Shown: in pieces, positions 3,033 through 42,028 of the stretch
Layout: every line of letters starts with the position of its first letter
How positions within the stretch are numbered: position 1 is the stretch's first letter
Source of the DNA: Candidatus Micrarchaeota archaeon
GTDB lineage: Archaea > Micrarchaeota > Micrarchaeia > Anstonellales > Anstonellaceae
Assembly (NCBI GenBank): GCA_964581105.1
Contig: CAZOMB010000001.1
Span: 79,730-143,729 of the forward strand
Reading direction: 5' to 3'
Length of the DNA stretch: 64,000 nucleotides
Program-made: the position numbers and the translations under genes
The notes under the pieces: model-generated
The model's database searches: none
The model's input: only the letters and a program-made list of their open reading frames with translations
What the model was told of the DNA's origin: nothing

Positions 3033-3051
3033 TAATGCACCCTAAAAGGGA

Positions 3052-4779: not shown

Positions 4780-4815
4780 GATAATGCCTCTCTTTGTTGT
4801 TTATTAATACTTTTG

Positions 4816-7800: not shown

Positions 7801-8040
7801 GCTAACAGAAGCATGGGTGCCATTCTTGCTTATTTGCGTGCTTTGGCCTATTAGTGAAGAAAAGTCATAGCCAATTATCCCTGAAAGCCGCAAGGCTTGT
7901 GTTGCATGGGCAAGGTTTGCCTGTGCCTGGCCCTGGCTTTTTCGCCACTCAAGGGCAAATGCTGCAAGAGTTATTATTGCAGCTGAGATTAGGATTATGG
8001 AAATCGTGAATGTGTAGCCCTTTTTTCCAATTGCCCTCAT
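4816..8040 (-). CDS. giant secreted pilin-like protein with class III signal peptide and multiple LamG (concanavalin-A-like lectin) domains, heavily N-glycosylation-sequon-rich
   Basis: Probable start MRAIGKKG|YTFTISIILISAAIITLAAF, a prepilin-type motif (K-G then a hydrophobic stretch). Laminin_G_3-type signatures IDEIRLYKRLLSHSQVYDHY and IDEVRLFNRSFSAQEITGLY. Dozens of NxS/T sequons. The ORF-track start at 8061 is an alternative codon; the ATG lies at 8038-8040. Confidence 0.6.
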   Translation of the reverse strand: MRAIGKKGYTFTISIILISAAIITLAAFALEWRKSQGQAQANLAHATQALRLSGIIGYDFSSLIGQSTQISKNGTHASVSLQTTFPFSKEGLALANLSKYSRQIPMLVKEHPYELVLVSNGFMGQQATVVNLPDSGAYSHSNNGQNNTDNISYTHPQGWSPAYIDLSIYCEKNYESIVPLAASGGGSPAINYTVAYSDLGSKETTSILADPVSITSYSVNFSDGTNLSFISNLSADGNLTTVSYTKSPSAHLVLTFDSNVSSTDTGAILDYSQFANNMTLGGGTQANAPLWEPGCIRGYGCYRFDGSDDYINRSNIDFTQAEVSFPPTANLLSNNDFETYEGTQDDGETDTFENWGMENPTAPNIYFDSTATAQSGSNAVKIYSTDSPDTDRIYQQVSLVQNARYMVSFWTRGDGSTTGKYRVYDEDTGNYLQDDGSWSGEATPLDTGVSGSTWQQIEKEFVVPTGSSTIDIEFVPATSGGDEYIFYVDNVTFYNSTNFNGGFEYYSGPDFNNWAVGAGSAFSVETTHNHSGTAGLKMENDANNSGSYIANSQLALKNSTKYSLQFWAKIIGAGEGGNIRYAIYDVSNDNYLNSSGQWQPSDGGTVVLSTLVEADYTKVTQNFMTNNTGTGIIQIRFYVPVPLTDVAYVDDASITQVYDFTVLAWVKSQELPSGSSLIYQYGTDEFGNAQGIDFAMASSENLSLGIYSSGVNITPSIKVADGRWHMLCLAVNRTGNYSAYLDGSLVLQAGAQNLGTINTSSQFLIGSNELGGATFNGMIDEIRLYKRLLSHSQVYDHYKGKYQDTCTINLTASYSNSSLQAMELLANYNAELRVRSRSPYAVSLFPFDSNVSSSNKGMVTDYSSKACHGTLGASSSPTWTQNGKIGGAYTFDGRDDFIELASQPIPNTTFTVSAWVNAASFAFSNKYNRIVSIDYGAYSSDNPFTLFVRDNGAIGYVFGTGNAYTDLQNPLSFSPNLTIDVWYHIAFTFNGTSKELYVNGQAQGTVNNSSTFSNPNQEELIIGDFSALSTDTGEWEGTIDEVRLFNRSFSAQEITGLYADSALVKQGSIVASHD

Positions 8041-9149
8041 CAGCTTACACCCCTGTACCATGCCTTGATGATAGCATAATAGTAAATGTCCTCATCCTGG
8101 TTTGCGTTGTGTGCAAATGGGAATTTCAAAACCTGCTGCTCTCCTTTTGAATAAGTGCAGTTGTGCTTGTTCACTGTATAAGCAAGGTTTTTGCTGTTTG
8201 AGTAAAGCTCATTTATTTCTGATTGAGAAAGCGGCTTGCTGTAAAGCCTGATTTCATCAATTGCGCCTATTAATCCATTTGAAAATGTGCCATTGAAATA
8301 GTCTGCCCCAATCCATGCATTGTTTGTGTTGTTTATTGGCAATGCTGAGCCAAAGCCTGTTGAAATTGAGCTCTGGTTTTGAGAATCAATGTACATTGTG
8401 AGGTTTCCTGTTGACTTGTCAAATACTGCGACAATGTGCTTCCACCCTGCCCCTGATATGCTTGAGTCTGCAGAAACAACAGTGCCATCATCATTGCAGT
8501 CATTTGATGATGAGTAAAAGCATGCACATGGCTTTCCTGATGAGTTGTCATAATATATCCTGTAGCCAGGGTAAAAGCCAGATTGGGGATATTTTCCGAA
8601 TATTGTTGGAGTTGAAGGGTTTTGGCTTGAAGTTACATTCAGCCAAAGGCTTATTGAAAAGCTGTCATTTTCTGGGTTTAAGTCAGGGGAATCTGTTATG
8701 TTTATTACTTGGGAGCCATTGAAATTAATTGCCCCTCCTGCTTTTCCCTTGAGCAAAGAGTAAGGCGAGCCAAATATTCGCCCAATATTCCTGTTGCCTG
8801 ATGAGTCTTCTGCGTTTTTTCCTGTTTCATCAAGCTTCCAGTATGCAACAAGCCCGTCTTTTACAGCTATCCCATACACAGAAACCTGCATGCACACTGA
8901 TTGCGGTGTTTTTCTCAATACCTGCCTTATCCCAGATGTGTTTGAGTTGTTAACAGAGTCAAAAGGGTCTGACAAATAGCCTTTTTCAGACATTATTGTT
9001 GCAGCATCTTGCATGTATTGGGAAAGAAGAGTGCCTGAAAGCGTGCTTTTTTGCGGCGCAGAAAAATAATAGGCAGCCAGGGCTATTACTGCAAATAAAA
9101 GCAGGAGAGCAAGCACAATGTCAAATGTCAGGAAAAAGCCTTTTTTCAT
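8040..9149 (-). CDS. pilin-like protein with class III signal peptide and C-terminal LamG domain
   Basis: True ATG at 9147-9149 gives MKKG|FFLTFDIVLALLLLFAVIALAAYY. LamG signature IDEIRLYSKPLSQSEINELY. The stop/start ATGA overlap with the upstream pilin gene suggests translational coupling. Confidence 0.55.
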   Translation of the reverse strand: MKKGFFLTFDIVLALLLLFAVIALAAYYFSAPQKSTLSGTLLSQYMQDAATIMSEKGYLSDPFDSVNNSNTSGIRQVLRKTPQSVCMQVSVYGIAVKDGLVAYWKLDETGKNAEDSSGNRNIGRIFGSPYSLLKGKAGGAINFNGSQVINITDSPDLNPENDSFSISLWLNVTSSQNPSTPTIFGKYPQSGFYPGYRIYYDNSSGKPCACFYSSSNDCNDDGTVVSADSSISGAGWKHIVAVFDKSTGNLTMYIDSQNQSSISTGFGSALPINNTNNAWIGADYFNGTFSNGLIGAIDEIRLYSKPLSQSEINELYSNSKNLAYTVNKHNCTYSKGEQQVLKFPFAHNANQDEDIYYYAIIKAWYRGVS

Positions 9150-9664
9150 AAAATCCTTCCTTTTTTGCCCCAAACCTGCACTTTTAGGGTTGCAATCGAA
9201 TCGTTCATCAGCACAAGCCTTTCTGTGCTTATTGCCAGTGTTGTGCTGTTGTTAAGGTCTGCTGAAATTCCAAATGAATAAAGCAGGGCTGTTGAGTTGT
9301 TCAAAGCAATGTAAATGTCAAACCTTCCTGCCCCCATGCTTTCCTTAATGTCCTGGTAATTGGTTGCATTCAATGACTCAAGCTTTGAGAATTTTGTTGG
9401 GGAAAGCCTGTTGCTTCTTGTTGCAAGGCCTATTGCGCTTGCATTTTCCATTTCACTTTGTTCCCAGCCAGAAGGCTCTCCAGGCGAAAGCACAAGCATG
9501 TCTGATATTCCGAAAAGCACTGTCTGCATTTCCCTTTCCATTTTCTCTTCTGAGTAAGCAGAGTGCATTGCAGCCCATATTGCAACAAAAAGCATTAAGG
9601 CGCCTATGAAAAGGGCAGATGCAATTACCAGCTCTGCTGAAAATATTTGCGCCTTTTTTTCCAT
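9146..9664 (-). CDS. pilin-like protein (class III signal peptide)
   Basis: N-terminus MEKKA|QIFSAELVIASALFIGALMLFVAIW has the shape of an archaeal type IV pilin signal peptide. Lies in an operon with the other pilins. Confidence 0.5.
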   Translation of the reverse strand: MEKKAQIFSAELVIASALFIGALMLFVAIWAAMHSAYSEEKMEREMQTVLFGISDMLVLSPGEPSGWEQSEMENASAIGLATRSNRLSPTKFSKLESLNATNYQDIKESMGAGRFDIYIALNNSTALLYSFGISADLNNSTTLAISTERLVLMNDSIATLKVQVWGKKGRIL

Positions 9665-9666
9665 AA

Positions 9667-10077
9667 TCATAACTCTCCAATATAAATTGTGCCTTCAGTG
9701 TTGTTTACATATATGTTAGAATTCAGGGGGATTGTGCTGCCTGAAAGAATTGTGTTGTTTGTGGAAAGCGGAACAGATACATAGCATCCTGCCTTGCATG
9801 CTGCTTTTACTGCCCTGCCCCCGTAAATCGTGATGTTGCTCACTCCTTTTGCAGCTGAATTGAAAAATACAATCTTGCTCCCGTTTCCTGCTGCTGCAAC
9901 CTTGTTTATTGCAATTGCAACCTGGCTTGCTGCTGCTGATGCCTGGAGGCTTTGCCCAAGTATGGCATTTTGCTGCTTTAGATGCCCGCTTGCAATGTAA
10001 ACTGAAAGCAGGAAAAACAGCATCACGCCTGCAACAAGCACTGCCTCAGGGGCAATCTGCGCTTTTTTGCCCTTCAT
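9667..10077 (-). CDS. pilin-like protein (class III signal peptide)
   Basis: N-terminus MKGKKA|QIAPEAVLVAGVMLFFLLSVYIA; 136 aa; 4-nt overlap with the downstream pilin gene. Confidence 0.5.
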   Translation of the reverse strand: MKGKKAQIAPEAVLVAGVMLFFLLSVYIASGHLKQQNAILGQSLQASAAASQVAIAINKVAAAGNGSKIVFFNSAAKGVSNITIYGGRAVKAACKAGCYVSVPLSTNNTILSGSTIPLNSNIYVNNTEGTIYIGEL

Positions 10078-10080
10078 CTC

Positions 10081-10959
10081 CTACCCCGCATTAACATCTG
10101 CTGTTATTGGAATTGTGAATGTCTCCTCAATGCCAGTTGCCTGCGATACTCCTGTTATGACCAGCTCAGAGTTGTATAGGCCTGCTGCGCTGGTGTTTGA
10201 TGCAAATGACAAGTTAATTGCTGTGTCAGAATCAATTGAAACATTAAATGAGGATGAAGAAAGGGTGAGGCCAACATTTTCATATGCCCATGAGCAATCT
10301 ATTGAAACTGCTACAGACTCGTTTGAAGCAGCGCTGAATGTGATAGTTTCATTTCTTGTCTCATTCCTTGCCATGCTCTTGTAAACAGAGCCTTTGTCAA
10401 CATCAAAAAAGTGCGTGCCTATTGCAACATAGCTTCCTTTTGAAACAACGAGCATTGTGTATACCCCGTCAGAGGCAGGGAAAGAGCCTGAAACCGGGGC
10501 TTTTGTTCCTGCAAATACGTCAGTATCCTGCACTTTTATGTTTATTAGAGTGGAAGCTGTTGAGGAAGAGGCGCTTGGCGGCCTTCCTATATATGTTGCA
10601 TTAGGGCTCAGGTTTGCATTTGTAGGAAGGGTTATCTTGACTTTTGCGCTTGCTCCTTCCCCTTGGGCATAGACTGAGTCTGCTGCATTTGCCAGTTTTT
10701 GCACTGAGTCTTTTGCGTCATCATAGTTCCTTTGTACCCCAATATCTGAGAGAAGGTCTGCTGAAAGCACTGCAAAAATCAGGATTACCACAAGGGAGAT
10801 TCCAAGTATTGAGATAAGCTCTATGCTTGCCTGCCCAGGCACTCTGCCTGCTCTTATGTGCCTTGGGCTGGCACCTGCCTGCCCGCTGTGTGCCATTTGC
10901 ATGGGAGTGTAAACCATGCTGTGCTTTAAATATTTTCTATCAGAGGCATTAGCATGCAA
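10081..10959 (-). CDS. pilin-like secreted protein (class III signal peptide); true start probably an internal Met
   Basis: ..RAGRVPG|QASIELISILGISLVVILIFAVL is a prepilin-like hydrophobic N-domain followed by a Ser/Thr/Asn-rich body. The ORF start overlaps the divergent ligase start, so an internal start is likely. Confidence 0.4.
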   Translation of the reverse strand: MHANASDRKYLKHSMVYTPMQMAHSGQAGASPRHIRAGRVPGQASIELISILGISLVVILIFAVLSADLLSDIGVQRNYDDAKDSVQKLANAADSVYAQGEGASAKVKITLPTNANLSPNATYIGRPPSASSSTASTLINIKVQDTDVFAGTKAPVSGSFPASDGVYTMLVVSKGSYVAIGTHFFDVDKGSVYKSMARNETRNETITFSAASNESVAVSIDCSWAYENVGLTLSSSSFNVSIDSDTAINLSFASNTSAAGLYNSELVITGVSQATGIEETFTIPITADVNAG

Positions 10960-14068: not shown

Positions 14069-15655
14069 CTATCTTTTTGCAAGCGAGTAGATGTCCCATT
14101 TTATTGTTTTTTTCTTTTCAAGCTCTTGCCCAAGCTGGTCAAGGACTGATTGTTTTGCCTTTTTGTAATCATCCTTTGGAATTTCAGCATTTCCTATAGC
14201 ATTTCTCTTGTTTTTTGTGTTAAAGCAGAACATAGAGTCATGCACATTTTCACAGTTGTGGGAAAAATACAAATCAGTGCATTCCTCGCAGTTGTCAACC
14301 TCAAAGCACCGGACAAGCCGCTTTGAGCGGAATGCCTTCATGCAAAAGGATGACTGCCATACTGATGAAGAGCCGAAAATGTTCTCTGATTCCCTTGGCC
14401 AGAATGAGTAGGCGCACTTTTTTGAGTGGACAGTTGCCTCGCAGCGATAGCAGTTTTCAGAGTATCCCATTGCAAAGCAGTCAATCATGTTATGGACTTT
14501 TCCTATCCTGTCATCAAGAGAGCAGTATGCAACAGGGTGGAATATTTCTGCCAATTCTTTTGGGTCAGGAATGATTTTCCCAGTATCAAGTTTACTCAAT
14601 GGTACTTTGCCGATTTCATTGATTTCATCCTCTGAAACAAATCTGCCATTCAGCTTGAACTTTTTACCAATGTACGCAAGGTAGCCTCCAAGAAGCACTT
14701 TTCTCCCTGTGAATGGGGAGGTAAATTGCATTCCCTGCAAAACATCCCTTTGCAGGAATTTTTCATATTGTTTTATTCCTGCTAGTGGCTTTGCAACAAG
14801 GATGGATGAGGTTTTTGTGAAGCTTTCTTCAATTGGCTTCAAATTCCCTTTTTCAGGCTCTGGTGGTATTGCTATTTTTATCTCTGGCTTTTTTTCCCTT
14901 GCAAAGTCAAGTATTTCAAAAATGGAGAAAACCTTTTTTTCTTTTTTCAGGGAACCAACAATTTCTTCAAGAAGCTTTGATTTTACTGCTAGGTATTTTT
15001 CCTTTCCAACTTCAAGATTGCCAATAAGATATGACTTGTTCCTTGGACCAAAAGAAAACATGCATTCGCGGCAGTTTTTGCACTGGACTGAGTAATAGCA
15101 GTCGCTGCTTGCCATTAGTGTGCAGCACTCAAAGCATCTTTTTCCCTTGTGGTTGTCAACTGAATTTATTGTGAATGAGGACTGGGCATCTGCAGTTGAG
15201 CCAAACATGTATTCGCAAAAGCGAATCATTGTGCAAAAAGCAATGTATTTTGAGTCAGAAACTATTGTTGAGCCAAGGACATAGTGGCTGTCAACAACAT
15301 TGCTTGATTCTTCCACGAATTTTGAATTTCCAAGCACTATGTTCCCAGTATAATGGATTCTTTCCTGCATTGCCGATATTATGCTGTCTATGTCCTTGAT
15401 TTCATTTATTGAAAGTGGAGTGAAGCTTTTGCTGAAATCAACCTCATCAGAGCCCAAAAAGTTAGCGCCATGCTTGAATGATTCTGATGGCATTATAACT
15501 TTTTTCCCAGAAACTGTTGAGCTTTCAACAAACCTTTTTCCTGCATATGCTGAAAGGTATTCTGAAAACTCGTCAAGCTCTCCTATTTCCTGGCTGAAAA
15601 TGGCCTTGCAGGTTGCTTTCCAAGCCCTATTCAGGTAGTCATGTGTGCTTAACAT
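14069..15655 (-). CDS. Cys-rich two-module protein, paralog A of an unrecognised family (~528 aa from the internal Met)
   Basis: Collinear homology over the full length with ORFs 18172-19773 and 23926-25478. Shared blocks include NRAWKATCK, IKDIDSII, YTGNIVLGNS, CKNCRECMFSF, IGNLEVGKEKY and the C-terminal CEECTDLYFSHNCENVHDSMFCFNTKNKRNAIGN..IYS. No signal peptide. The likely start is MLSTHDYLNRAW (15653-15655), by alignment with the paralogs. Confidence 0.6.
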   Translation of the reverse strand: MLSTHDYLNRAWKATCKAIFSQEIGELDEFSEYLSAYAGKRFVESSTVSGKKVIMPSESFKHGANFLGSDEVDFSKSFTPLSINEIKDIDSIISAMQERIHYTGNIVLGNSKFVEESSNVVDSHYVLGSTIVSDSKYIAFCTMIRFCEYMFGSTADAQSSFTINSVDNHKGKRCFECCTLMASSDCYYSVQCKNCRECMFSFGPRNKSYLIGNLEVGKEKYLAVKSKLLEEIVGSLKKEKKVFSIFEILDFAREKKPEIKIAIPPEPEKGNLKPIEESFTKTSSILVAKPLAGIKQYEKFLQRDVLQGMQFTSPFTGRKVLLGGYLAYIGKKFKLNGRFVSEDEINEIGKVPLSKLDTGKIIPDPKELAEIFHPVAYCSLDDRIGKVHNMIDCFAMGYSENCYRCEATVHSKKCAYSFWPRESENIFGSSSVWQSSFCMKAFRSKRLVRCFEVDNCEECTDLYFSHNCENVHDSMFCFNTKNKRNAIGNAEIPKDDYKKAKQSVLDQLGQELEKKKTIKWDIYSLAKR

Positions 15656-15780
15656 AAAACTCCGGGAAAAACTTGAAGATGGGAAAATAAAAAGCTGCGT
15701 GCCTTTTTCTGCAAAATGATACGAAAAACCCATTTAACGTCGTAAAAGCAAAAATTCTCAGAACGCGCGGGTTCGGGAAC

Positions 15781-15793
15781 GTATATAAATTTA
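15781..15793 (+). promoter_or_regulatory. TATA box and leader of ftsZ1 (GTATATAAATTTA), preceded by the GC-rich box GAACGCGCGGG
   Basis: TATA-like element ~30 nt upstream of the ftsZ1 ATG. The whole ~55-nt promoter/leader is ~75% identical to the region upstream of ftsZ2. Confidence 0.45.
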
Positions 15794-15820
15794 ATTGCAG
15801 TATTAGGTTCGGCGATCAGC

Positions 15821-16885
15821 ATGGACAGTTTAGTAAAATCAGTCCTAGGAGAGCAAGAGTCAGCTCAACAGCCGGAATCTTTTGGCTCAGACCAGATTAA
15901 GATTGTGACACTCGGTGTAGGAGGAGGCGGAAACAACACAATAAACAGGCTTATTCGCTCAGGAGTAAAGGGATGCGAGCTTGTGGCAGTTAACACTGAC
16001 AGGCAGCACCTGAATATGATCCACGAAAAAGCCAAAAAGGTCCTCATCGGAAAAACCATTACCAAGGGGCTTGGGGCCGGCGGATACCCGGAAACAGGCA
16101 CCAAGGCAGCAGAAATTGACAGGCCACTTCTTGAGAAAGAGCTTGAAGGGGCTCACCTGTGCTTTATCTGCGCAGGAATGGGCGGAGGCACTGGAACCGG
16201 AGCAGCACCTGTAATTGCAGAGGTTGCAAAGGAGCAGGGAGCCATCGTCGTTGCAATGGTAACATATCCCTTTAACCTTGAAAGGGCACGAAGGGTAAAA
16301 GCCGATGAAGGAATCGCAAAACTTCGCAAGAATGTTGATTCAGTCATTGTTCTTGACAACAACAGGCTGGTAAAGCTTGTGCCAAACCTTCCAATGAACG
16401 AGGCGTTTGCAGTTGCAGACGAAATTCTCGCAAAGGCAGTTGGAGGACTTGTTTGGACAATTACCCAGCCAAGCCTGATAAACATCGACTTTGCTGATGT
16501 GCGAGCAATCGTACAGGGCGGAGGCGTTGGCTTTATTGCTGTCGGCGAAGGAAAGGGAACCGACAAAGTCAGGGGAGCTTCTGAAGGAGTTCTCAAGAAC
16601 AGGCTTCTTGATGTTGACTATGAGGGTGCAAATGGCGCGCTCATACACATATCAGGCGGTGCTGACCTGACACTTGGGGATGCCATCAAAGCAGGTGAAA
16701 TAATCACTGAAAGGATGGACCCGCAGGCAAATGTCAAGTGGGGAGCAAGGCTCATACCAGGATACGATGGAAAACTGGAAATAGTTGCCATTGTAACCGG
16801 GGTAAAAGGAGCAAACATCTTTGGCGCAGGAGCAGACGAGCCAAAGAAAGAGGCATCCTACCAGGACATAGAAATTATCGGCTAA
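15821..16885 (+). CDS. ftsZ: cell division GTPase FtsZ (paralog 1)
   Basis: Tubulin/FtsZ signature [11 protein letters not shown] and [20 protein letters not shown]; 354 aa. Confidence 0.9.
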
Positions 16886-17047: not shown

Positions 17048-18040
17048 TTACTTGTTTAGCTCAGGAAACTCAACAGGAATGTCCCTAAACTGGTCTATTT
17101 TGTAAATGTAAGTCGGCTCAACCCTTTGTATTATGTCTGAGAACTTGTATTTCATCTCATGCATTATTTTCCTGAAAGGCTCCCCCCTTTCAACTTCAAC
17201 ATCAATTACCAAATCCCAGTAGCCAAGCACGCGAAGGTGGTGGACTATGTTTGGGTGCATCTGGCAATATGTAAACAGCATTTTTTCCTTTTGCGAAGTC
17301 ATATTAGCAAGCTTGAAAAGGACCCTGTGGCGCGGCTTTCCTATAAGCACATGGTCTGGCAAAATGGTATAGCTTTGTATTATGCCTGTGCTCTCAAGCT
17401 TTTTGATTATGTTTTTTGCAGACATTATTGATATACCCGTATTTGCCGCTATTTTTACAAGAGATACCCTGGCATTGTGGTTTACCATTGACAGGACTTT
17501 TCTTTCGGTTTCCTTAAGCTGTATTTGCTTTACGTCTGCGCCTGTGAACGCTGTGTATTCCTTTTTTGGCTGGGCTTTTTCCTTGATAAGGTATGAGCGG
17601 TGGAACTGCGTAAAGCCTATTGGTATTGTTGTGTCATATTCCCTGAAGTTTTTGCTGAACTTGTTGTTAAGCTCAGTGATTATCTGCTGCAAATGGAATA
17701 TTCCTTTTGCACATATTGCTATGATAAGGTCAGCATATCCCTCCCCCCTCATTATTATCGGGATAAACCTGTGCCTGTTAAGATAAGTATAAAGCTCTTT
17801 TTCAGATTTTTCATCCATGTTCTGCAGCTTGAAAAAATACTGGCCGAAAAAATAGCCTGCTTTCCTGTACTCCACCATTGGCCAGCAGTACTGCAATACT
17901 CCTGACTCGTACAGGTTTTCAACCCTGTACTTTACTACTTGCGGGCTGGTGCGAAGTGATTTTGCTATAAAGCTATAGGACTTTCGCGAGCCCTGGTCAA
18001 GCAGATACAGAATTTTCCTGTCCAAAGTATCAATGCCCAT
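17048..18040 (-). CDS. tandem (duplicated) Lrp/AsnC-family transcriptional regulator
   Basis: Two HTH_AsnC-like segments (LDRKILYLLDQGSRKSYSFIAKSLRTSPQVVKYRVENLYESGVL and ERKVLSMVNHNARVSLVKIAANTGISIMSAKNIIKKLESTGII), each followed by a RAM-like domain; 330 aa. Confidence 0.65.
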   Translation of the reverse strand: MGIDTLDRKILYLLDQGSRKSYSFIAKSLRTSPQVVKYRVENLYESGVLQYCWPMVEYRKAGYFFGQYFFKLQNMDEKSEKELYTYLNRHRFIPIIMRGEGYADLIIAICAKGIFHLQQIITELNNKFSKNFREYDTTIPIGFTQFHRSYLIKEKAQPKKEYTAFTGADVKQIQLKETERKVLSMVNHNARVSLVKIAANTGISIMSAKNIIKKLESTGIIQSYTILPDHVLIGKPRHRVLFKLANMTSQKEKMLFTYCQMHPNIVHHLRVLGYWDLVIDVEVERGEPFRKIMHEMKYKFSDIIQRVEPTYIYKIDQFRDIPVEFPELNK

Positions 18041-18171: not shown

Positions 18172-19773
18172 ATGGGCATAAACAGCGCATGGAAATCAAC
18201 CTGCAAGGTTCTCCTGAAAGAGGAGATTGGCGACCTCAAGGGCTATGAGTATTACCTGAAAAAATTTATGGGCCCTGTGAGCGCAAAAAGAAAGTCAGTG
18301 CTGTCAGGAAAACAAGTGACAACTGCTGATGATGATTTTGGGCTGCCAACCAGGTTTATCTCAAATTCAGAGAGGGAGCAATATGCTAAGCTGTACTCAA
18401 AGCCTTTTGACATCAACAGGATAAAAGACATTGACTCTGCCATCCAGGAGCTTGAAGAGCGCTTCATTTACTCAGGAGACATTGTGCTTGGAAAGTCAGT
18501 GGCTGTTGAAAACTGCCAAAGGTGCACAGATGTTTCAGATACTTATTGGTCACAGGATGTTTCTGACAGCAGGAATATTGCCTATTGCTCAATGCTGCGC
18601 TATTCAACTTTTGTTTTCGGGTCAGACTGCACAGGGGAAATAGATTTTGTTATCAAGAATTTCCAGGGCTGGAAGAGCAGAAGGCTTATGGAAACAACAA
18701 ATACCCAGTACTGCTCAGATGTTTACTTTAGCGCAAACATGAGGTACTCTGCAGAGTGCATGTTCTGCTTTAATCAGGAAGGAAAAAGAAATATGATAGG
18801 GAATTTGCAGCTTGGCAAAGATGAATATTCTAAGCTCAAGCAAAAGCTGGTTGAAGATATTAGAGGAGAGCTTGGGTCAAAAAAAGATATTGTGTCAATA
18901 AATGAGCTTCTTGGCGCGCCTCCAAGGGCAGGCAAATGCGAAAAAAGGCCTGCAACCTGGGATGTTGGTGGAAAAAAACATTTTGCAAGTGATTGCCCGC
19001 AAGAGCTGGACAAGGCATTTGCTTCTGCCTGCTCAGTGCTTTTTGGAAGAAAGCTATCAGGAAAAATGACTGATTATGAGAAATGGCTCATGAAAAATGT
19101 GCGTGCGCCGCCTAAGTCAAAAAGTAAGTTATCAGGAAAAAGCCTTTACATTTTGCCAATCCTGTTCAATGAGCCTGTGAGAGACACGCACATAAGCCTT
19201 GAGGAGGCAAGGCAGGCGTCACGACTTCATATTTCTGAAGAGGATGCACAAAAGCTGTGCATCTCAAATGCAAAGCAAATACTAAAGCCAGTTGCACTTT
19301 TCACGTCAGATGTAAAGCTGGGGGAAAATGTCCAGGTAAAAGACACTGTGAGCTTTGCTGATTCAATAAATATTTTTGGCAGCTCAACAATGTATGGCTC
19401 AAAAAACTGCGCATATGGCTGCTGGGTGTCGCACAATGCTGAAAATATGTTTGGCTGCGACCACACCTTTTACTCAAAATTCTGCATTCATGCATACAGG
19501 TCCCTAAAGCTTGTAAGATGCTTTGAAATCAGCGACTCAAAGGACTGCTCTGACTGCTTTTTTTGCCACAACTGCGAAAACTGCCATGAATGCATGTTCT
19601 GCTTCAACGTGAAATCAAAGCGCTATGCAATAGGCAATGTTGAGGTGGGAAGGGAAAAATATTCCAAAATCAAGAAGATGCTGCAGCAGGAGATTGCAAA
19701 AAGGCTTGAAGAAAAAAAGGAAATTGGCATTGGAATTTACAATATAGGGTGTCAAATCAAGGGAAAAAAGTGA
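18172..19773 (+). CDS. Cys-rich two-module protein, paralog B of the same unrecognised family (533 aa)
   Basis: Homologous to 14069-15655 and 23926-25478. Motifs SAWKSTCKVLLKEEIGDL, IKDIDSAIQ, YSGDIVLGKS, ECMFCFNQEGKRNMIGNLQLGKDEY. The C-terminal module contains a regular C-x2-C array, DCSDCFFCHNCENCHECMFCFNVKSKRYAIGN, ending IYNIGC. Confidence 0.6.
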   Translation: MGINSAWKSTCKVLLKEEIGDLKGYEYYLKKFMGPVSAKRKSVLSGKQVTTADDDFGLPTRFISNSEREQYAKLYSKPFDINRIKDIDSAIQELEERFIYSGDIVLGKSVAVENCQRCTDVSDTYWSQDVSDSRNIAYCSMLRYSTFVFGSDCTGEIDFVIKNFQGWKSRRLMETTNTQYCSDVYFSANMRYSAECMFCFNQEGKRNMIGNLQLGKDEYSKLKQKLVEDIRGELGSKKDIVSINELLGAPPRAGKCEKRPATWDVGGKKHFASDCPQELDKAFASACSVLFGRKLSGKMTDYEKWLMKNVRAPPKSKSKLSGKSLYILPILFNEPVRDTHISLEEARQASRLHISEEDAQKLCISNAKQILKPVALFTSDVKLGENVQVKDTVSFADSINIFGSSTMYGSKNCAYGCWVSHNAENMFGCDHTFYSKFCIHAYRSLKLVRCFEISDSKDCSDCFFCHNCENCHECMFCFNVKSKRYAIGNVEVGREKYSKIKKMLQQEIAKRLEEKKEIGIGIYNIGCQIKGKK

Positions 19774-19810
19774 ATTCCTACGAACGCGCGCGCGTGCGCA
19801 TTTAGGAAAT

Positions 19811-19850
19811 CTATTTAAATGTGCTTGCAGTAGTAAATGCGGCGACCAAG
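19811..19850 (+). promoter_or_regulatory. ftsZ2 promoter/leader paralogous to the ftsZ1 promoter (TATA CTATTTAAAT, conserved TTGCAGTA..CGGCGA.CA..ATGGA); the ATG homologous to the ftsZ1 start opens an 8-codon uORF at 19851
   Basis: Base-by-base alignment with 15761-15825 gives ~75% identity including spacing. The ATG at 19851 is followed by an in-frame TAA at 19875. The real ftsZ2 ORF begins 81 nt downstream, in the same frame. Confidence 0.4.
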
Positions 19851-19931
19851 ATGGAATGCTTTGTAACGTCTGAGTAATAATGCAAGGCGTTAGCGGAAGC
19901 ATCATCCAGGTTACAAAACAAAAGATGGGGG

Positions 19932-20987
19932 TTGGGCTATATGTTTGAAAGCGTATCTTCGGAAAAAAAGGAAACAGAAACACTCATGAGCAATGAGGAG
20001 GTAAGAATAGCTGTAATTGGAGTCGGCGGAGCGGGCTGTAACACTGTTGGAAGGATGATGAGAAGCGGGATAAAAAGTGCCCAGACAATCGCTGTTAATA
20101 CTGACCAGCTTCATTTGAAAGTCACAAATGCGCACAAAAGGGTTTTGATTGGCTCAAATATCACAAAAGGGCTTGGGGCAGGAGGATTTCCTGAGGTTGC
20201 CACAAAATGCGCTGAAATGAGCAAAGGAAAACTTACAGAAGTAATTGGCCCCCGTGAACTTGTTTTCATTGCAGCAGGAATGGGAGGAGGCACTGGAACC
20301 GGAGCAGCACCTGTAATTGCAGAGGTTGCAAAAAACCAGGGAGCAACAGTTGTTTCTGTTGTTACAATCCCATTCAGGCTTGAAAGGGCAAGAGTGCAAA
20401 AGGCAAAATGGGGCCTTGAAAGGCTTGCAGCAGTTTCAGACACTGTTATAGTGATTGAAAATGACAGGCTTGTGAATTATGTGCCTAACCTTCCTATCAA
20501 TGATGCATTTAACCTGGCAGACGCAATCACTGGCAAGGCAATTACAGGGATTGCTGACACCATAATGTTCCCGTCACTTATGAACATTGACTTTGCAGAT
20601 GTTAAATCTGTGATGGACAATGGGGGCTTTGCCTTGATTTCAATGGGTGAGGGCAGAGGGCCTGACAGGATTGAGCAGGTTGCAAGAAGCACTCTTGAAA
20701 ACCCTCTGCTTGATGTTTCTGCTGAAGGCGCAAAAGGGGCATTGCTTCACATTGGAGGAGGCCCGCAGCTTACCCTTGGAGAGGGAATTGACATTGGAGA
20801 GAAGATTTCAGAGAGCTTTGACCTGAATGCTGACGTAAAAATAGGCGCAAGGCTTGACCCAACCCTTGGAGACGGGCTTTCAGTAACTGCAATAGTAACT
20901 GGCATACACAACCCATATGCACAAGGGACAGCAAAAGCAGACAAGCAAGCCGAAAAAGTCGTGGAAATGGATGTAATCAACTTCTGA
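19932..20987 (+). CDS. ftsZ: cell division GTPase FtsZ (paralog 2); first ATG at 19941 (the ORF-track start at 19932 is TTG)
   Basis: GVGGAGCNTVGRM and [23 protein letters not shown]; 351 aa. A 48-nt tract within the GGGTGTG region is identical to ftsZ1. Confidence 0.9.
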   Translation: MGYMFESVSSEKKETETLMSNEEVRIAVIGVGGAGCNTVGRMMRSGIKSAQTIAVNTDQLHLKVTNAHKRVLIGSNITKGLGAGGFPEVATKCAEMSKGKLTEVIGPRELVFIAAGMGGGTGTGAAPVIAEVAKNQGATVVSVVTIPFRLERARVQKAKWGLERLAAVSDTVIVIENDRLVNYVPNLPINDAFNLADAITGKAITGIADTIMFPSLMNIDFADVKSVMDNGGFALISMGEGRGPDRIEQVARSTLENPLLDVSAEGAKGALLHIGGGPQLTLGEGIDIGEKISESFDLNADVKIGARLDPTLGDGLSVTAIVTGIHNPYAQGTAKADKQAEKVVEMDVINF

Positions 20988-21028: not shown

Positions 21029-21161
21029 GTGGACTGAGGGGGATTTTCAGTCCTTTTTCCAGTTTTTGGTGAAGCTTTTTGCGCCAAAGGCGGAAAAAGG
21101 TTCTTTGAACCCCCGGCCTCGTCGTTGCGAACGACGCGCTCTACCGCTGAGCTATCAGCCC
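21029..21161 (-). tRNA. tRNA-Ala (anticodon CGC) with a ~60-nt intron in the T-loop
   Basis: Minus strand: GGGCUGA-UA-GCUC-AGCGGUA-GAGC-G-CGUCG-UUCGCAA-CGACG-AGGCC-GGGGG-UUCA[intron]AAU-CCCCC-UCAGUCC-A. The G3:U70 pair is the Ala identity element. The intron GAACCUUUUUCCGCCUUUGGCGCAAAAAGCUUCACCAAAAACUGGAAAAAGGACUGAA shares its core with four other tRNA introns in the window. Confidence 0.7.
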
Positions 21162-22966: not shown

Positions 22967-23050
22967 GCCGAGTTGGCAGAATCCGGTATTGCGCTAGACT
23001 TGAGATCTAGTGCCCTTCGGGGCTTAGGAGTTCGAATCTCCTACTCGGCG
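22967..23050 (+). tRNA. tRNA-Ser (anticodon UGA), intron-less, type II
   Basis: GCCGAGU-UG-GCAG..CCGGU..-CUAGA-CUUGAGA-UCUAG, long variable arm UGCCCUUCGGGGCU, T arm AGGAG-UUCGAAU-CUCCU, acceptor 3' ACUCGGC-G. A T-run follows. A 14-nt direct repeat of its 5' end (UGCCGAGUUGGCAG) lies 53 nt upstream, at 22913-22926. Confidence 0.75.
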
Positions 23051-23053
23051 TTT

Positions 23054-23812
23054 TTATTTGAAAGGCTTGCTTTTCTTCCAGAATTCCTCAAAATAGGCCA
23101 TAAAGCTATCTGCAACCTCCTGGCTAACTATCTCTATTGTTATTGGCTTTGAAGAAATTACGCAAATTGCTGCAGTGTCCTTGTAGCACATGTACCAGGT
23201 AGGGCTGTTCAGCTCTATTGGCATGTACCTGGCTTCATTTCCCTTGAAGCTGTTCCTGTTAACAAGCACTTTTCTCAAGGTTTTTGGATGGAAAAGCATC
23301 TTGCTTTTTATGCCTGCCTTTATTCTCCTTAAATGGTCGCGCTGCCAGTATGCATGGTGCGCCTCTGGCTGGCCATAATGAATCCCAAAGTAAACATAGG
23401 TTTCCCCCCTTTTCAGCTTCTGGTATGTGTGCTCATGGGCAGTTATCATGCCTTTCATGCCCTCATAGATTGTTACTTTGCTCCTTTCCCCTAAATTCTG
23501 CAATGCTGCAAATGAAGGCATCTGCTTTTCAAGCTCTTTGTGGCACAACACCATTTCCTGTTGCTTCTTGCCAATATAATCAAGAAGCTGGTTTGGGGCA
23601 GAAGCCTGGTAATATTTTATCTTTCTCTTTATTATGTGAGAAACAAGCCCTTTTTCTGTAAGGCGTGAAAGTATCTGGTATATTATTGAGCGGGAAACGC
23701 CTGCCTTTTGGGCTGCCTTGCCTGCTGATGAAAGGCCTGCCTCAAGCAAAGCAAGATATACTTTTGATTCGCCGCCTGTAAGCCCTGCTTTTTTGAGAAG
23801 ATCTTCCCTCAT
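23054..23812 (-). CDS. TrmB-family transcriptional regulator
   Basis: N-terminal winged HTH LTGGESKVYLALLEAGLSSAGKAAQKAGVSRSIIYQILSRLTEKGLV is typical of TrmB; 252 aa with a C-terminal sensor-like domain. Confidence 0.7.
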   Translation of the reverse strand: MREDLLKKAGLTGGESKVYLALLEAGLSSAGKAAQKAGVSRSIIYQILSRLTEKGLVSHIIKRKIKYYQASAPNQLLDYIGKKQQEMVLCHKELEKQMPSFAALQNLGERSKVTIYEGMKGMITAHEHTYQKLKRGETYVYFGIHYGQPEAHHAYWQRDHLRRIKAGIKSKMLFHPKTLRKVLVNRNSFKGNEARYMPIELNSPTWYMCYKDTAAICVISSKPITIEIVSQEVADSFMAYFEEFWKKSKPFK

Positions 23813-23925
23813 GAAAGTGGTTTGTCTTTAGACCTATTTAATGCTTTGCATAATGTGCACCAGTGGTGGTGTGCTATTATATAAATATAAGGCAGGTGAA
23901 ATTAAGTGTTAGGAGAAGGATTTAT

Positions 23926-24714
23926 ATGGATACAACAGCAGAGAAAACCGCTGTGCTTGCAGCCCTTGAAAGAGCATGGGCAGGCACTTGCAGGGTTGTG
24001 CTCATGGGAGAGGTTGGGCCATTGATGGAATTTGAGCCTTACTTAACTAGGAGGAAGGAGAAGTGCAGGCTTGAAAAGTCATTAATATCTGGAAAGCGGG
24101 TTGCAGTGATTGGCACTTACCCAAAAGGAAGCAGATTCATATCTGACAAAGAGGCTAAACAATACCTGGAAAAAACCAAGGGCATGAAGCTGGACATAAA
24201 TTCAGTAAAAGACATTGACTCTGCTATTGGAGCATTCTCAGAAATTGCAGCATATGCAGGAGATGTAGTGCTTGGAAGGTCATACGGGGTTTTGGAATCA
24301 ACAAAAGTTGTTGAGTCAAGCTATGTGTTTAGCTCATCTGATGCGATTTACAGCAAGTTCATAGCATTCACGCAAATAGCCAAATACTCTGAAAATGTTT
24401 TTGGATGCATAAGCGCTGGAAAAAACTCCCGCTTTGCAATAGCCTGCGCAGAGTCTTATGAGTCTGCACGAACATTTGAGTGCTTTTATGTGTACCATGC
24501 TTCAGACTGCGTTTACAGTGCAAACGTTGAAAACTGCCAGGACTGCATTTTCAGCTTTAACTTAAGGGGAAAGAGGAGGTGCATTGGCAACCTTGAGCTT
24601 GCCCCTGACAAATACAGGCAGTTAAAGGAAAAGCTGCTCTCAGAGGCAAGGCAAATGCTGTCGGAAAAGAAGAGCCTGCCATCAATATATGACATTGTGA
24701 GGGGAAAAACATGA
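23926..24714 (+). CDS. Cys-rich family paralog C, N-terminal module (split gene, part 1)
   Basis: Aligns along its length with the N-terminal halves of paralogs A and B (ERAWAGTCRVVLMGEVGPLMEFEPYL, INSVKDIDSAI, YAGDVVLGRS, CQDCIFSFNLRGKRRCIGNLELAPDKYRQLKEKL). It ends in the inter-module linker with a TGA that overlaps the next ATG (ATGA). Confidence 0.6.
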   Translation: MDTTAEKTAVLAALERAWAGTCRVVLMGEVGPLMEFEPYLTRRKEKCRLEKSLISGKRVAVIGTYPKGSRFISDKEAKQYLEKTKGMKLDINSVKDIDSAIGAFSEIAAYAGDVVLGRSYGVLESTKVVESSYVFSSSDAIYSKFIAFTQIAKYSENVFGCISAGKNSRFAIACAESYESARTFECFYVYHASDCVYSANVENCQDCIFSFNLRGKRRCIGNLELAPDKYRQLKEKLLSEARQMLSEKKSLPSIYDIVRGKT

Positions 24715-25478
24715 GGGAAATAGAAAAGAACTTTGAAACTGTGGCTTCAGTCATACTGGGAAAGCCAGTTGGCCAGCTTCAGGACTATGAAGAGTGGCTG
24801 CTTTCCTGTTCTCCAGAGGCAAGGATAGTTGAAAAAAAGTCAGTTGATAGTGGAAAAAGCGTATACTCATGCTCTGCCCCTTTCTTTTTGGACCTTGGTG
24901 ACAGGGTGGTAAGGGTTGATGAAGCCCTGAAAAGAGGGCAAATGAAGCTTGGCGAAAAGGATGTCAATTCACTTTCCATTTCCAATGCTCCAAAGCTCCT
25001 TTCAGAAATAAGCATAACAACCCCTGAGATAGTTTACGGGGAGAACTTTGGAACTGAAGAATGCTCTGCATATGGCCCGACTCAGCAATGCTTTAGGACA
25101 ACTACATGCTGGTTTTGCAAGCACATAGCATACAGCTACTGGACAAGGACCAGCAACAACTGTTTTGGCTGCTCGCTTGTGACAGACTGTTCATTTTGCA
25201 TAAAGTGCTACAACTCAACAAAGCTTTTGCGCTGCTTAGAGGTAGATACTAGCAACAGCTGTGCAGACTGCCTGTTTTGCCATAACTGCGAAAATCTTTC
25301 TAACTGCATGTTCTGCTTTAATGTGAAAAATTTGAGGTATGCTGTTGGAAATCAGGTGGTTGGGAAAGAGGAATACCTTAGGATAAGGGGCATCTTGTGC
25401 AGCAATATACTTGAAAGCCTTGAGAAAAAGAAAAAGTTTGACCTTAGCATCTACAACATTGGATGCAGGAAGAATTAG
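24711..25478 (+). CDS. Cys-rich family paralog C, C-terminal module (split gene, part 2)
   Basis: Aligns with the C-terminal halves of paralogs A and B (FETVASVILGKPVGQLQDYEEWLL; CADCLFCHNCENLSNCMFCFNVKNLRYAVGNQVVGKEEY; ..LSIYNIGC). Confidence 0.6.
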   Translation: MREIEKNFETVASVILGKPVGQLQDYEEWLLSCSPEARIVEKKSVDSGKSVYSCSAPFFLDLGDRVVRVDEALKRGQMKLGEKDVNSLSISNAPKLLSEISITTPEIVYGENFGTEECSAYGPTQQCFRTTTCWFCKHIAYSYWTRTSNNCFGCSLVTDCSFCIKCYNSTKLLRCLEVDTSNSCADCLFCHNCENLSNCMFCFNVKNLRYAVGNQVVGKEEYLRIRGILCSNILESLEKKKKFDLSIYNIGCRKN

Positions 25479-25479
25479 C

Positions 25480-25785
25480 TTATTCAAGAGAGATTTTCAC
25501 CTGTACATTGTCAGGCACGCGCACTCTCATTATCTGCCTTAGGGTTCTTTCATCCCCAGCAACGTCAATAATGCGCTTGTGGACCCTCATCTGCCAGTGC
25601 TCATAAGTGTCTGAGCCGTCTCCGCACGGGGTCCTTCTGGTTGTGATTTCAAGCTTTTTGGTGGGAAGCGGAACTGGGCCTTTTATTTCAACTCCTGTCA
25701 TTCTTGCAATTTCAACTATTTGCTTGCATACTTCCTCAAGCTCCTCAGGCGACTTGCCAATCAGCTTGATTCTTGCTTTTCCCAT
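25480..25785 (-). CDS. rps10: 30S ribosomal protein S10 (uS10)
   Basis: MGKARIKLIGKSPEELEEVCKQIVEIARMTGVEIKGPVPLPTKKLEITTRRTPCGDGSDTYEHWQMRVHKRIIDV matches the archaeal uS10. Lies immediately downstream of tuf. Confidence 0.9.
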   Translation of the reverse strand: MGKARIKLIGKSPEELEEVCKQIVEIARMTGVEIKGPVPLPTKKLEITTRRTPCGDGSDTYEHWQMRVHKRIIDVAGDERTLRQIMRVRVPDNVQVKISLE

Positions 25786-25899
25786 GAAAATTTCCCCTGG
25801 AAATTTTCAGACATGCCCAAGGGCATGCTGATCAATCCACCAATCGCTGTTCCAATCCTTTTGACCGGACACAACCAAAAAATCCATAAAATAAAAAAT

Positions 25900-28027: not shown

Positions 28028-28157
28028 AGAAAGGTATGCCCCTGTAGCTCATCGGTAGAGCGGCTGCCTTGTAAGCAGCAGGTAGTGGGTTCAATGGACC
28101 TTTTTCGGGATGCCTAAAAAGCTCCACCAAAAAGGTCTGAAAATCCCATCGGGGGCT
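28028..28157 (+). tRNA. tRNA-Thr (anticodon UGU) with a ~47-nt T-loop intron
   Basis: GCCCCUG-UA-GCUC-AUCGGUA-GAGC-G-GCUGC-CUUGUAA-GCAGC-AGGUA-GUGGG-UUCA[AUGGACCUUUUUCGGGAUGCCUAAAAAGCUCCACCAAAAAGGUCUGAA]AAU-CCCAU-CGGGGGC-U, then a T-run. The intron termini (GGACCUUUUU / AAAAAGGUCU) are complementary. Confidence 0.7.
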
Positions 28158-29898: not shown

Positions 29899-31287
29899 TT
29901 ATTTGAAAAGCCCTGATAAAGATGATAAGGAAACCATCTTCAGGAGCCTGCCTATTGACATTTTCAGGAGCCTTGCCTTGCCATCCTTGCAAAATACAAG
30001 CCATTTTTTCAAAAGCTTTATCATTGCCCTGCGCTTGAAAAGGCTCTTTTTCCTCTTGAGGAGCTTTTTGTAAAGCTGTGCCGGAAGCATGCCCTTTACG
30101 ATTTTCTTTACCCTTTCTTCACTTTCCTCATCAAGCTGGGAAAGCCTGTATATTGTTTCATTCAGCTCTTTTTCAATCTCTTCATATTTCTTTATTAGTT
30201 CCTCTCTTCTTGCTATTATTTCCTTTACTACTGGTGGAGGTATGTTAAGCTCCCTTGCCTGTGCCATTATTTTCTGCTCCTCCTCCTGTGAAACTATGAT
30301 TAGCTGCTGTTCTTTTTGTGCCTGCTGTATTGCCTGCTTCTCAACAGGCAGTGCTGCTTTTTCAGCTTGTTTGGCTTCCTGCTTTACCTTTTCCTCTACA
30401 GCCGTTTTTTCAGCAATTGCCTTTTCCTCTACAGCCGTTTTTTCAGCAATTGCCTTTTCTTCTGCTTTCTTTTGCTCAGTTGCCTGCTTTTGCATGATTT
30501 GCTGCTCTTTTTGAGGCTGCTGTGCCTCAAGGTGCGCAAGCTGCTTCTTTTTCTCCTCTGTTGCAATCCTGTATTGCTCGCTTTCCATTTTTTCTGCTGC
30601 CATCTGAACGCAGTAAATGACAGCAGCATTCTGAGCCTTGCTTTCAAGCCCCATTGCAACAGCCTCTTCAGGGCTTGCTGGAAGCTGTGCCTTTGACTGT
30701 GATTCAAGCATTTCCTTGTCAGTCATGATTTCTGTCTTTGTTGCCTGTGCCTGCGTCTGCTTGAGGTCCTCATTGTAAAAGCTCCACACAGCCTGTGTTG
30801 TTTCCCTCTTTTTCTGCGGCTGGTCAGATACCTGGCTCTGCACGCTCTCAACAACTGTCCGGCTCCTTCCCAGCTGGTCTGCTGCGTTCTTTACCTGCTC
30901 AAGCTTCATGGCATTTTGCACATACTTTATTGCCCTTTCATAGCCCCAGATGAAAGAGGCTGCATAGATTGCATTCTGTGCTCCAGGGGTAAGGGTCGAC
31001 ATAAAGCTTGATATTCCCCCCTTTTTGAACATCTTTTCTGTTTCTGAAAGCACTGCCACTATCTCATCATCTGTCCCAGAAGCAAGCTTATCGCTTGGAA
31101 GGTGAGCCTTGAGAAACTGCTTTATTTTGCCTGCCTTTACCTTGAGAATATAGTCTTTTCTTTCCTCTTCATCCTCGTCATCCCTTTTCTTTGCATAGAG
31201 CTGGAAGGCAAACATCTTGCGCACCTTTGTATTTTTCCCGCTTCGCAGGAAAAAATGCGGAGAATTGTCCTTGCAGACAAAAACCAC
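29899..31287 (-). CDS. hypothetical coiled-coil protein, Glu/Lys/Gln-rich, with an internal perfect tandem repeat
   Basis: Long heptad-like E/K/Q/A-rich central region (..QKQATEQKKAEEKAIAEKTAVEEKAIAEKTAVEEKVKQEAKQAEK..). No catalytic motifs. The true start may be the internal MFAFQLY. Confidence 0.4.
   Translation of the reverse strand: MVFVCKDNSPHFFLRSGKNTKVRKMFAFQLYAKKRDDEDEEERKDYILKVKAGKIKQFLKAHLPSDKLASGTDDEIVAVLSETEKMFKKGGISSFMSTLTPGAQNAIYAASFIWGYERAIKYVQNAMKLEQVKNAADQLGRSRTVVESVQSQVSDQPQKKRETTQAVWSFYNEDLKQTQAQATKTEIMTDKEMLESQSKAQLPASPEEAVAMGLESKAQNAAVIYCVQMAAEKMESEQYRIATEEKKKQLAHLEAQQPQKEQQIMQKQATEQKKAEEKAIAEKTAVEEKAIAEKTAVEEKVKQEAKQAEKAALPVEKQAIQQAQKEQQLIIVSQEEEQKIMAQARELNIPPPVVKEIIARREELIKKYEEIEKELNETIYRLSQLDEESEERVKKIVKGMLPAQLYKKLLKRKKSLFKRRAMIKLLKKWLVFCKDGKARLLKMSIGRLLKMVSLSSLSGLFK
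30388..30453. repeat. perfect 33-nt tandem duplication (2 copies) inside the coiled-coil gene
   Basis: cttttcctctacagccgttttttcagcaattgc at 30388-30420 is repeated exactly at 30421-30453; it encodes AIAEKTAVEEK twice. Confidence 0.8.
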
Positions 31288-41386: not shown

Positions 41387-42028
41387 TCAGTAGAGCTTTT
41401 TAGCATATTCTAGCTGGAGACGCAACAAATTATTTTTTATTTGAGTTGTTTCAGCAAGCCTCCCACCTGCTTTTAGCCATTCAAGACAGTTTTTGTTTAG
41501 GTAAAGGTCTGCAAACGAGCTTTCTACTCCGTTTGTGGCAACATGGAGAAAAAAGAGCGCTGTTGCAATGTCTTTTGAGGTTGCTGTCTTTGGCAGTTTA
41601 CCAGAGCCAAGAAGGTTAAGAAAAACAGTCTTAGTTTTCTCTGTCAATTTGATTCTGAAAAAATGTGAAAAGAATGCTGCCCCTAAAGCCCCTTTCTTGG
41701 AAAGGAAAAGGGTGCGGGAGTCTGGCTCAAAAGACGGCCTTGAAGAAGTCGATACATTCAACCCAAGGATCTGAGATACATTAGACAAATCTCTTACAGG
41801 CTTAAGTTCAGAAAGAGTTTTGCTGACAACCCTTTTTGATTCTGTTACTGGTTTTTCATATGTTATATATTCTCCAAGAAAGACCATTTTCCCTTTTTTA
41901 TATGTCTGTTTTTCCCTTAGCTCAATTGGAGAACTGGGGATTTTCTCAAGAAGCTTGTTTATGTTTGAAAACCTTGGATTTGATCTCACAAACTCGTGCA
42001 TTATCTGCTGTGTGATTACGTTTTTCAT
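41387..42028 (-). CDS. hypothetical protein (213 aa)
   Basis: ORF with coding-like composition; 4-nt overlap with the giant gene upstream; no motif recognised. Confidence 0.35.
   Translation of the reverse strand: MKNVITQQIMHEFVRSNPRFSNINKLLEKIPSSPIELREKQTYKKGKMVFLGEYITYEKPVTESKRVVSKTLSELKPVRDLSNVSQILGLNVSTSSRPSFEPDSRTLFLSKKGALGAAFFSHFFRIKLTEKTKTVFLNLLGSGKLPKTATSKDIATALFFLHVATNGVESSFADLYLNKNCLEWLKAGGRLAETTQIKNNLLRLQLEYAKKLY

Follow-up and report, generated by a model that had tools for sequence, protein, structure and literature searches.

The window, the whole 64,000-nt stretch of micrarchaeal DNA analysed here, encodes three members of one two-module protein family. Paralog A (14069..15733, minus strand) is a fused two-module protein of 554 amino acids when read from its first ATG (the JGI gene call starts at 15655 and gives 528 amino acids), and paralog B (18172..19773, plus strand) is a fused two-module protein of 533 amino acids. 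The third member, C, lies on the plus strand as two genes. C1 (23926..24714) is the N-module half, with 262 amino acids counted from its ATG (the mechanical ORF opens further upstream, at GTG 23863) and a TGA at 24712–24714; C2 (24711..25478) is the C-module half, with 255 amino acids from an ATG at 24711. Stop and start overlap by 4 nt as ATGA (24711..24714, plus strand), a putative termination–reinitiation site. The overlap can be read directly in the sequence: positions 24697–24714 are GTG AGG GGA AAA ACA TGA in the frame of C1, and the ATG at 24711–24713 lies in the other frame. The last codons of C1 contain a Shine–Dalgarno-like GAGGGG (24699..24704, plus strand), the GAGG core of which lies 8 nt before the ATG of C2. 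On the 5′ side of C1, sequence inspection points to a TATA-like element, TTATATAAATATA (23876..23888, plus strand), as the predicted promoter of a C1–C2 operon. An Rfam search of the window returned three tRNAs only, with no match at the C1/C2 junction.

By BLASTP, residues 14–258 of C1 align with residues 34–275 of A (39% identity) and 2–247 of B (37%), and residues 1–253 of C2 align with residues 298–554 of A (33%) and 277–528 of B (36–38%); N- and C-modules are themselves homologous, at about 28% identity. With C1 aligned to the N-modules and C2 to the C-modules of the two fused paralogs, the break lies exactly at the inter-module boundary. C1 corresponds to the N-module and C2 to the C-module of A, B and 120 further fused homologs; the two adjacent same-strand ORFs thus match consecutive, non-overlapping parts of these proteins in the same order. 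The sequence-only reading had described the third family member as two ORFs of 262 and 255 amino acids, with the TGA of one overlapping the ATG of the other and the break exactly between the modules that are fused in A and B. The ORF listing, the translation and the JGI gene calls on a contig identical at this locus (262 and 255 amino acids) agree on the two ORFs; the overlap is seen in the letters, and the alignments place the break where that reading had put it. A further point, missed there, is that C has almost no linker: 8 residues separate its module anchors, whereas 122 fused homologs have at least 19 there, with a median of 26, and the linker is 19–38 residues long in every fused member.

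The exact C2 protein is present on four contigs from other samples, two of which were aligned to the window. The first, a JGI metagenome contig, is 99.90% identical over 20.7 kb (20 mismatches) and 100% identical across positions 23000–26000; the second, a Logan contig from a different run, is 100% identical over 7 kb. Because the identical frame break occurs in independent assemblies, an assembly indel is unlikely.

With C1, C2, A, B or a C-module profile as the query, no family in Pfam, NCBIfam or PDB sequences scored above threshold. An AlphaFold2 model of B, built from 117 aligned sequences, has a pLDDT of 90.5 and a pTM of 0.90 and consists of two β-solenoid modules joined by a linker (residues 247–276) of lower confidence. 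In the model each module has N-terminal helices, a β-solenoid of approximately 6-residue strands with regularly spaced cysteines, and a long C-terminal helix. On this basis the family is an unannotated, Micrarchaeota-specific protein of two predicted β-solenoid modules. The pTM of 0.90 suggests that the two modules of B sit in a fixed arrangement relative to each other, which the split halves would reproduce as a heterodimer. When C1 and C2 were artificially concatenated, AlphaFold2 returned two modules and a disordered junction (pLDDT 83, pTM 0.79); as scores these are compatible with, though not decisive for, packing of C1 against C2. The likeness to known β-solenoids, including curli CsgA, the Tenebrio antifreeze protein and left-handed β-helix enzymes, is at the level of the fold, with 7–19% identity, and neither the cysteine-laddered nor the other β-solenoids match the N-terminal helices, the long C-terminal helix or the two-module architecture of the family. 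These limits leave no basis for carrying a function over from those proteins.

A TrmB-family regulator (23054..23812, minus strand; Pfam TrmB, E = 7e-14) is divergent from C1, and a TrmB or HTH_24 regulator is divergent to family members in many loci. We considered the TrmB neighbour as a marker of orthology and found it unreliable, as TrmB and HTH_24 regulators flank split and fused members alike. A and B adjoin FtsZ genes; a function linked to FtsZ was considered and dropped, as FtsZ occurs within 6 kb in only 3 of 80 related loci.

Split and fused relatives across Micrarchaeota

A word-indexed homology search with C1 and C2 joined as the query gave 189 matches. Among the 120 of these that were listed, the proteins are 465–822 amino acids long, that is, fused, and all of the named ones are from Micrarchaeota. 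An exhaustive HMMER search with C2 alone recovered 554 relatives at E ≤ 0.001, and the best 150 of these include about 27 single-module proteins of 240–295 amino acids that start at the module boundary. Their contigs carry N and C genes side by side, with overlaps of 14–17 nt. On one contig (L007), a divergent TrmB gene is followed by two genes of 258 amino acids each that overlap by 14 nt, and a second pair there encodes 256 and 256 amino acids with a 17-nt overlap; on another (L008), a divergent HTH_24 regulator is followed by genes of 252 and 256 amino acids, again with a 14-nt overlap.

We then considered one genome per GTDB species, in which a profile of split C-modules detected 361 relatives, and took the best 80 loci, all of them from Micrarchaeota metagenome-assembled genomes (L011–L090). 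ORF analysis of these 80 loci found 57 split, 20 fused and 3 cut by a contig end, a ratio of 57:20 that overstates the frequency of the split form because the scan profile came from split C-modules. All of the 22 loci closest to C2 (60–43% identity) are split. The layout is constant among the split loci: the N gene directly precedes the C gene in each, with both on one strand. The sequence-only reading had proposed a comparison with orthologous loci, and in this comparison 57 of the 80 carry the same split. That reading had also located the split inside paralog C; the split is real, but it is not confined to this genome, being common to at least 21 orthologous pairs and to other clades.

The three closest loci show how the junction varies. 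C1 is 60–62% identical to the N genes of L011–L013, and C2 is 55–60% identical to their C genes; the junctions read gcggggaaaTGAcATG in L011, gcggggaaATGAcc in L012 and aaggggcgatTGAaaATG in L013. In these three loci the stop is shifted by at most about one codon relative to that of C1, and the frames differ. Across the split loci the junction types include TGAcATG, ATGA, in-frame TGAATG or TAAATG, and overlaps of 8–20 nt. In 60 split junctions, including that of the window, stop and start are separated by a gap of up to 31 nt or overlap by up to 41 nt; 42 of the 60 have a stop-to-start distance between −5 and +8 nt, and for 57 it is no more than 20 nt. The frame of the C gene relative to the N gene, in 56 scanned junctions, is +1 in 37 and −1 in 12, with an in-frame stop in the remaining 7 (L043, with a spurious 260-nt ‘overlap’, was left out of the junction counts).

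With synonymous sites saturated against the nearest orthologs (about 60% amino-acid identity), selection was gauged by family-invariant residues rather than by dN/dS. Of the positions with at least 90% conservation among the 122 fused homologs, C1 retains 28 of 28 and C2 retains 23 of 24 (the exception is K to R), or 51 of 52 in total. By this measure, both halves are under purifying selection and show no degeneration.

In a neighbour-joining tree of 394 modules (238 alignment columns), the N modules are set apart from the C modules in every one of 100 bootstrap replicates. Because this separation is perfect, the duplication that gave rise to N and C predates the radiation of the family. Both halves of the window’s C fall in the same 21-member clade, in which all members are split (L007a, L008a, L011–L026, L032, L053 and C itself), and the two halves were inherited together; the exact 21-member grouping is recovered in only 15–38% of bootstrap replicates. 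Paralog A belongs to a 108-member clade in which all members are fused, and paralog B to a small fused clade near split clades. Judged from its distribution, the split in C is old, as it is common to at least 21 orthologous pairs and extends down to about 43% identity. Every bootstrap replicate requires at least three changes between the split and fused states; on these trees such transitions are recurrent, at least three in number, and always at the same module boundary.

The direction of the change is less clearly recorded. Fitch parsimony on the paralog-rooted subtrees reconstructs a fused root with five state changes from the full data, and over bootstraps the root is fused in 65–66%, ambiguous in 26–31% and split in 3–9%. 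These reconstructions weakly favour the fission of a fused ancestor, followed by the loss of a linker of 19–38 residues, over an ancestral split. The opposite order would have a tandem duplication produce adjacent N and C genes, with A and B fused later and C never fissioned. There is a natural logic to this alternative: N and C modules are paralogs (about 28% identity) that separated before the whole family, and a tandem gene duplication begins as two genes. It is also consistent with the presence of split pairs in several clades, with the roughly 35% of bootstraps in which the root comes out as split or ambiguous, and with three fused members near split clades (L046, L059 and L067) that retain the ...I[IV]GG residues found at the ends of split N genes. 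Fusions are, moreover, generally commoner than fissions in genome surveys, as these are cited in a study of archaeal gene fusion and fission (PMC11237513). Against an ancestral split, the root is fused in the full data, in both paralog-rooted subtrees and in 65–66% of bootstraps; the deepest branches are fused; and fused members have linkers of 19–38 residues, although the fusion of overlapping genes should leave almost none. We regard a primordially split C as possible and rather improbable.

Signals at the stop/start junction

The region upstream of C2 is predicted to pair with the archaeal anti-Shine–Dalgarno sequence with a duplex energy of −6.7 kcal/mol, compared with a median of −5.3 for genes of the window and −2.4 for random 19-mers of the window; energies of −5 kcal/mol or lower are reached by 60% of window genes and by 11% of random window 19-mers. 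This signal is specific to the split form. At the end of the N-module, the mean duplex energy is −8.0 kcal/mol in split loci versus −3.8 kcal/mol in fused loci (Mann–Whitney, p = 8.5e-8), and the share of loci at −5 kcal/mol or lower is 93% among the split and 26% among the fused ones. The split N proteins close in ...I[IV]GG or ...RG, and the codons of these residues supply the Shine–Dalgarno-like signal.

In experiments in Haloferax and Escherichia coli, overlaps of 4 nt and 1 nt bring about tight termination–reinitiation, and such overlaps are over-represented among subunit genes of heteromeric complexes (PMC10666635). A published signature of translational coupling is the conserved co-location of stop and start without a conserved shift site; GeneTack, a frameshift-detection program, assigns ‘translational coupling’ when the start lies within 10 nt of the stop across a cluster (PMC3711429). 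The junctions described above match the published signature, the C1/C2 pair has the GeneTack pattern, and its 4-nt overlap fits the experimental result.

We propose that C1 and C2 would be co-transcribed from the promoter upstream of C1, and that a ribosome terminating at the TGA at 24712–24714 would reinitiate at the overlapping ATG at 24711, aided by the Shine–Dalgarno-like GAGGGG in the last codons of C1. Such coupling would supply the two halves in roughly equal amounts, and these would assemble as a heterodimer that mirrors the intramolecular N–C arrangement of A and B. One element may count against co-transcription: the AATATAT at 24684–24690, in the AT-rich end of C1, may be an internal promoter.

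A competing account of the junction is that ribosomes slip there. In this account, programmed −1 frameshifting on G_GGA_AAA (24702..24708, plus strand) would yield a fused C1–C2 protein, either as the sole product or together with C1. In the frame of C1 the heptamer conforms to X_XXY_YYZ, and it lies among the six codons from which a −1 shift would lead into the open frame of C2. The slip product would read ...VRGKNMREIEK, with a spanning peptide ...DIVRGKNMREIEK... in a protein of roughly 58 kDa. The Shine–Dalgarno-like element is directly upstream and overlaps the first base of the heptamer; some bacterial frameshift sites have such an element upstream, and −1 frameshifting in archaea is known from Sulfolobus fucA. 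What a programmed site would need beyond the heptamer is missing from this junction. The 106 nt from 24695 to 24800 fold no better than expected (z = −0.56; 53 of 200 shuffles were at least as good), and their centroid structure has no stem adjoining the heptamer, so that a stable downstream structure to stimulate slippage is absent. Neither the site nor the frame is conserved: the heptamer occurs in 0 of the 12 other −1-frame junctions, including that of L012 with the same ATGA overlap, and among orthologs +1 junctions (37) outnumber −1 junctions (12) and in-frame stops (7). Because the frame relations differ, no single recoding mechanism fits all of the junctions. Across the genes of the window, 1.1% of codon positions hold an in-frame heptamer, a rate that puts the chance of one arising here at about 6.5%. 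C2 also has an ATG and a Shine–Dalgarno sequence of its own, and the fusion would have a linker of 8 residues, shorter than in any natural fused member, where it has 19 or more. The heptamer was judged coincidental, most simply a by-product of a G-rich Shine–Dalgarno sequence followed by an A-rich spacer, and we consider programmed frameshifting very unlikely.

A mixed use of the junction, in which reinitiation mostly gives separate C1 and C2 and a minority of ribosomes slip by −1 to make a fused isoform with an 8-residue linker, seems to us equally far-fetched; if it were true, one locus would make both of the forms between which the family alternates elsewhere. We give almost no credence to the reading of C as an artefact or a young pseudogene, arising from a sequencing or assembly indel or from a recent inactivating 1-nt deletion in GGGGAAAAA: one added A or G in that run would give a single 518-codon frame, and the presence of three paralogs makes redundancy possible, but the junction is identical across independent assemblies from different samples and pipelines, orthologs at 43–62% identity in many species are also split, both halves retain essentially all conserved residues, the linker of C is missing and not just frameshifted, and the Shine–Dalgarno signal is specific to split loci, which together refute this reading as far as sequence can show.

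The sequence-only reading had offered two explanations for the junction, an authentic fission with translational coupling or a −1 frameshift, either erroneous or programmed. The second is not supported, given frames that vary among orthologs, seven junctions with an in-frame stop and ATG, no stimulatory structure and a heptamer that is not conserved. An authentic split with translational coupling is what the comparison favours: the juxtaposition of stop and start and the internal Shine–Dalgarno-like sequence are conserved across many species, and the assemblies are identical. The term fission fares less well, in that the split is authentic and its origin by fission, as opposed to an older split state, is weakly resolved, with a fused root in about 65% of bootstraps. 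Taken as a whole, an authentic and maintained two-gene form that most likely arose by fission, would be coupled by reinitiation and would form a heterodimer is probably the best explanation of the locus (a probability of roughly 0.85).

Known split and coupled genes

C1 and C2 show every feature of a conserved split pair with translational coupling that can be tested in sequence, and a split pair with overlapping stop and start is a known phenomenon, ordinary in kind. The closest parallels in DPANN archaea are the split genes of Nanoarchaeum equitans for reverse gyrase, alanyl-tRNA synthetase and DNA polymerase, in which a reduced genome likewise encodes a single-chain protein as two genes, with the break between domains, and which have prompted the same debate about whether the split state came first or was derived (PMC6349945). 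Split genes have also been described for Micrarchaeota (PMC6349945). Many of the N. equitans halves are dispersed, and the enzymes are informational, whereas C1 and C2 are adjacent, collinear and overlapping and belong to an unannotated, lineage-specific family. Unlike those cases, split and fused paralogs coexist in the genome that carries C1 and C2.

With coupled overlapping pairs (Huber et al. 2023, PMC10666635; Antonov et al. 2013, PMC3711429), C1 and C2 have in common the ATGA, the Shine–Dalgarno sequence within the upstream gene, the conserved co-location of stop and start, and a product that is likely to be heteromeric. They differ from the pairs with 4-nt and 1-nt overlaps in that many of their orthologs overlap by 8–20 nt and in that coupling here is predicted. 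The archaeal ‘Rosetta stone’ families identified by their fusions and fissions (PMC11237513) also have composite and syntenic split states with several transitions between them, as in the family of C1 and C2. That screen was based on Pfam and would miss this family, because no Pfam or NCBIfam model exists for it; here, moreover, the parts are themselves paralogous modules.

The programmed −1 sites of dnaX, insertion sequence (IS) elements and Sulfolobus fucA resemble the C1/C2 junction in having an X_XXY_YYZ heptamer before the 0-frame stop and a downstream ORF in the −1 frame. Unlike them, C1/C2 has no stimulatory structure, its site and frame are not conserved, and its downstream ORF has start signals of its own.

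Annotations should retain C1 and C2 as separate genes, without merging, a frameshift flag or a pseudogene label. The value of the locus lies in documentation and annotation more than in new concepts. A specific protein–protein interaction between C1 and C2 is predicted, and the family provides a clean natural example of gene fission and fusion co-evolving with translational coupling in reduced DPANN genomes.

Module number and split copies

The number of modules in this two-module beta-solenoid family varies in both directions. The homologue P0004 (822 amino acids) has a third module, an added insertion of about 290 amino acids that resembles another C-type module, and P0001, at 730 amino acids, is far above the family norm of about 525 amino acids. 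Some genomes also have more than one split paralogue: L007, a contig carrying a relative of the window's C2 gene, encodes a second split pair (6669..8193, minus strand; 256 and 256 amino acids, with a 17-nt overlap) in addition to its TrmB-adjacent split pair.

FtsZ genes beside family members

Both fused paralogues in the window have an FtsZ gene as a neighbour. One (15821..16885) is divergent to paralogue A, the pair spanning 14069..16885, and the second (19932..20987) lies immediately downstream of paralogue B, the pair spanning 18172..20987. Among the 80 best loci from a scan that gave 361 relatives, FtsZ occurs within 6 kb of a family member in only three (L068, L081 and L088). Two tubulin/FtsZ-family genes flank the fused homologue P0002 (L003, 6266..12723). 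The two window FtsZ paralogues share about 142 nt (16160..16301 versus 20261..20402) at approximately 82% DNA identity, a similarity that showed up through cross-matches in the comparison of the window to L001, a near-identical metagenome contig.

Other features of the window

A type-IV-filament-like cluster (1092..10959) includes two polytopic membrane proteins (1092..3032) and a T2SSE-type ATPase (3052..4779), all assigned by reading of the translations, as well as a 1,081-amino-acid Laminin_G_3/CBM_4_9 protein (4816..8061) and additional predicted surface proteins. No Pfam match at E ≤ 0.001 was found for a 2,031-amino-acid ORF (42025..48120, minus strand), and Pfam gave no match for a Lys/Glu/Ala-rich ORF (29899..31287, minus strand), inside which sits a short tandem coding repeat (30384..30463; 33-nt offset, copies about 96% identical). 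Rfam identified three tRNA genes, at 21088..21161 (minus strand), 28038..28111 (plus strand) and 22967..23050 (plus strand), the last of which is 84 nt long and directly adjoins the TrmB gene.

Divergent regulators

Family members, whether split or fused, very often have a divergent winged-helix regulator gene, which encodes either TrmB or a two-domain HTH_24/AsnC-type protein. Two such genes are present in the window (23054..23812 and 17048..18040, both minus strand), and the arrangement was also noted in L007, in L008 (another contig with a C2 relative) and in the related loci L013, L014, L018, L025 and L027. The frequency of this gene arrangement suggests that the family is under dedicated regulation.
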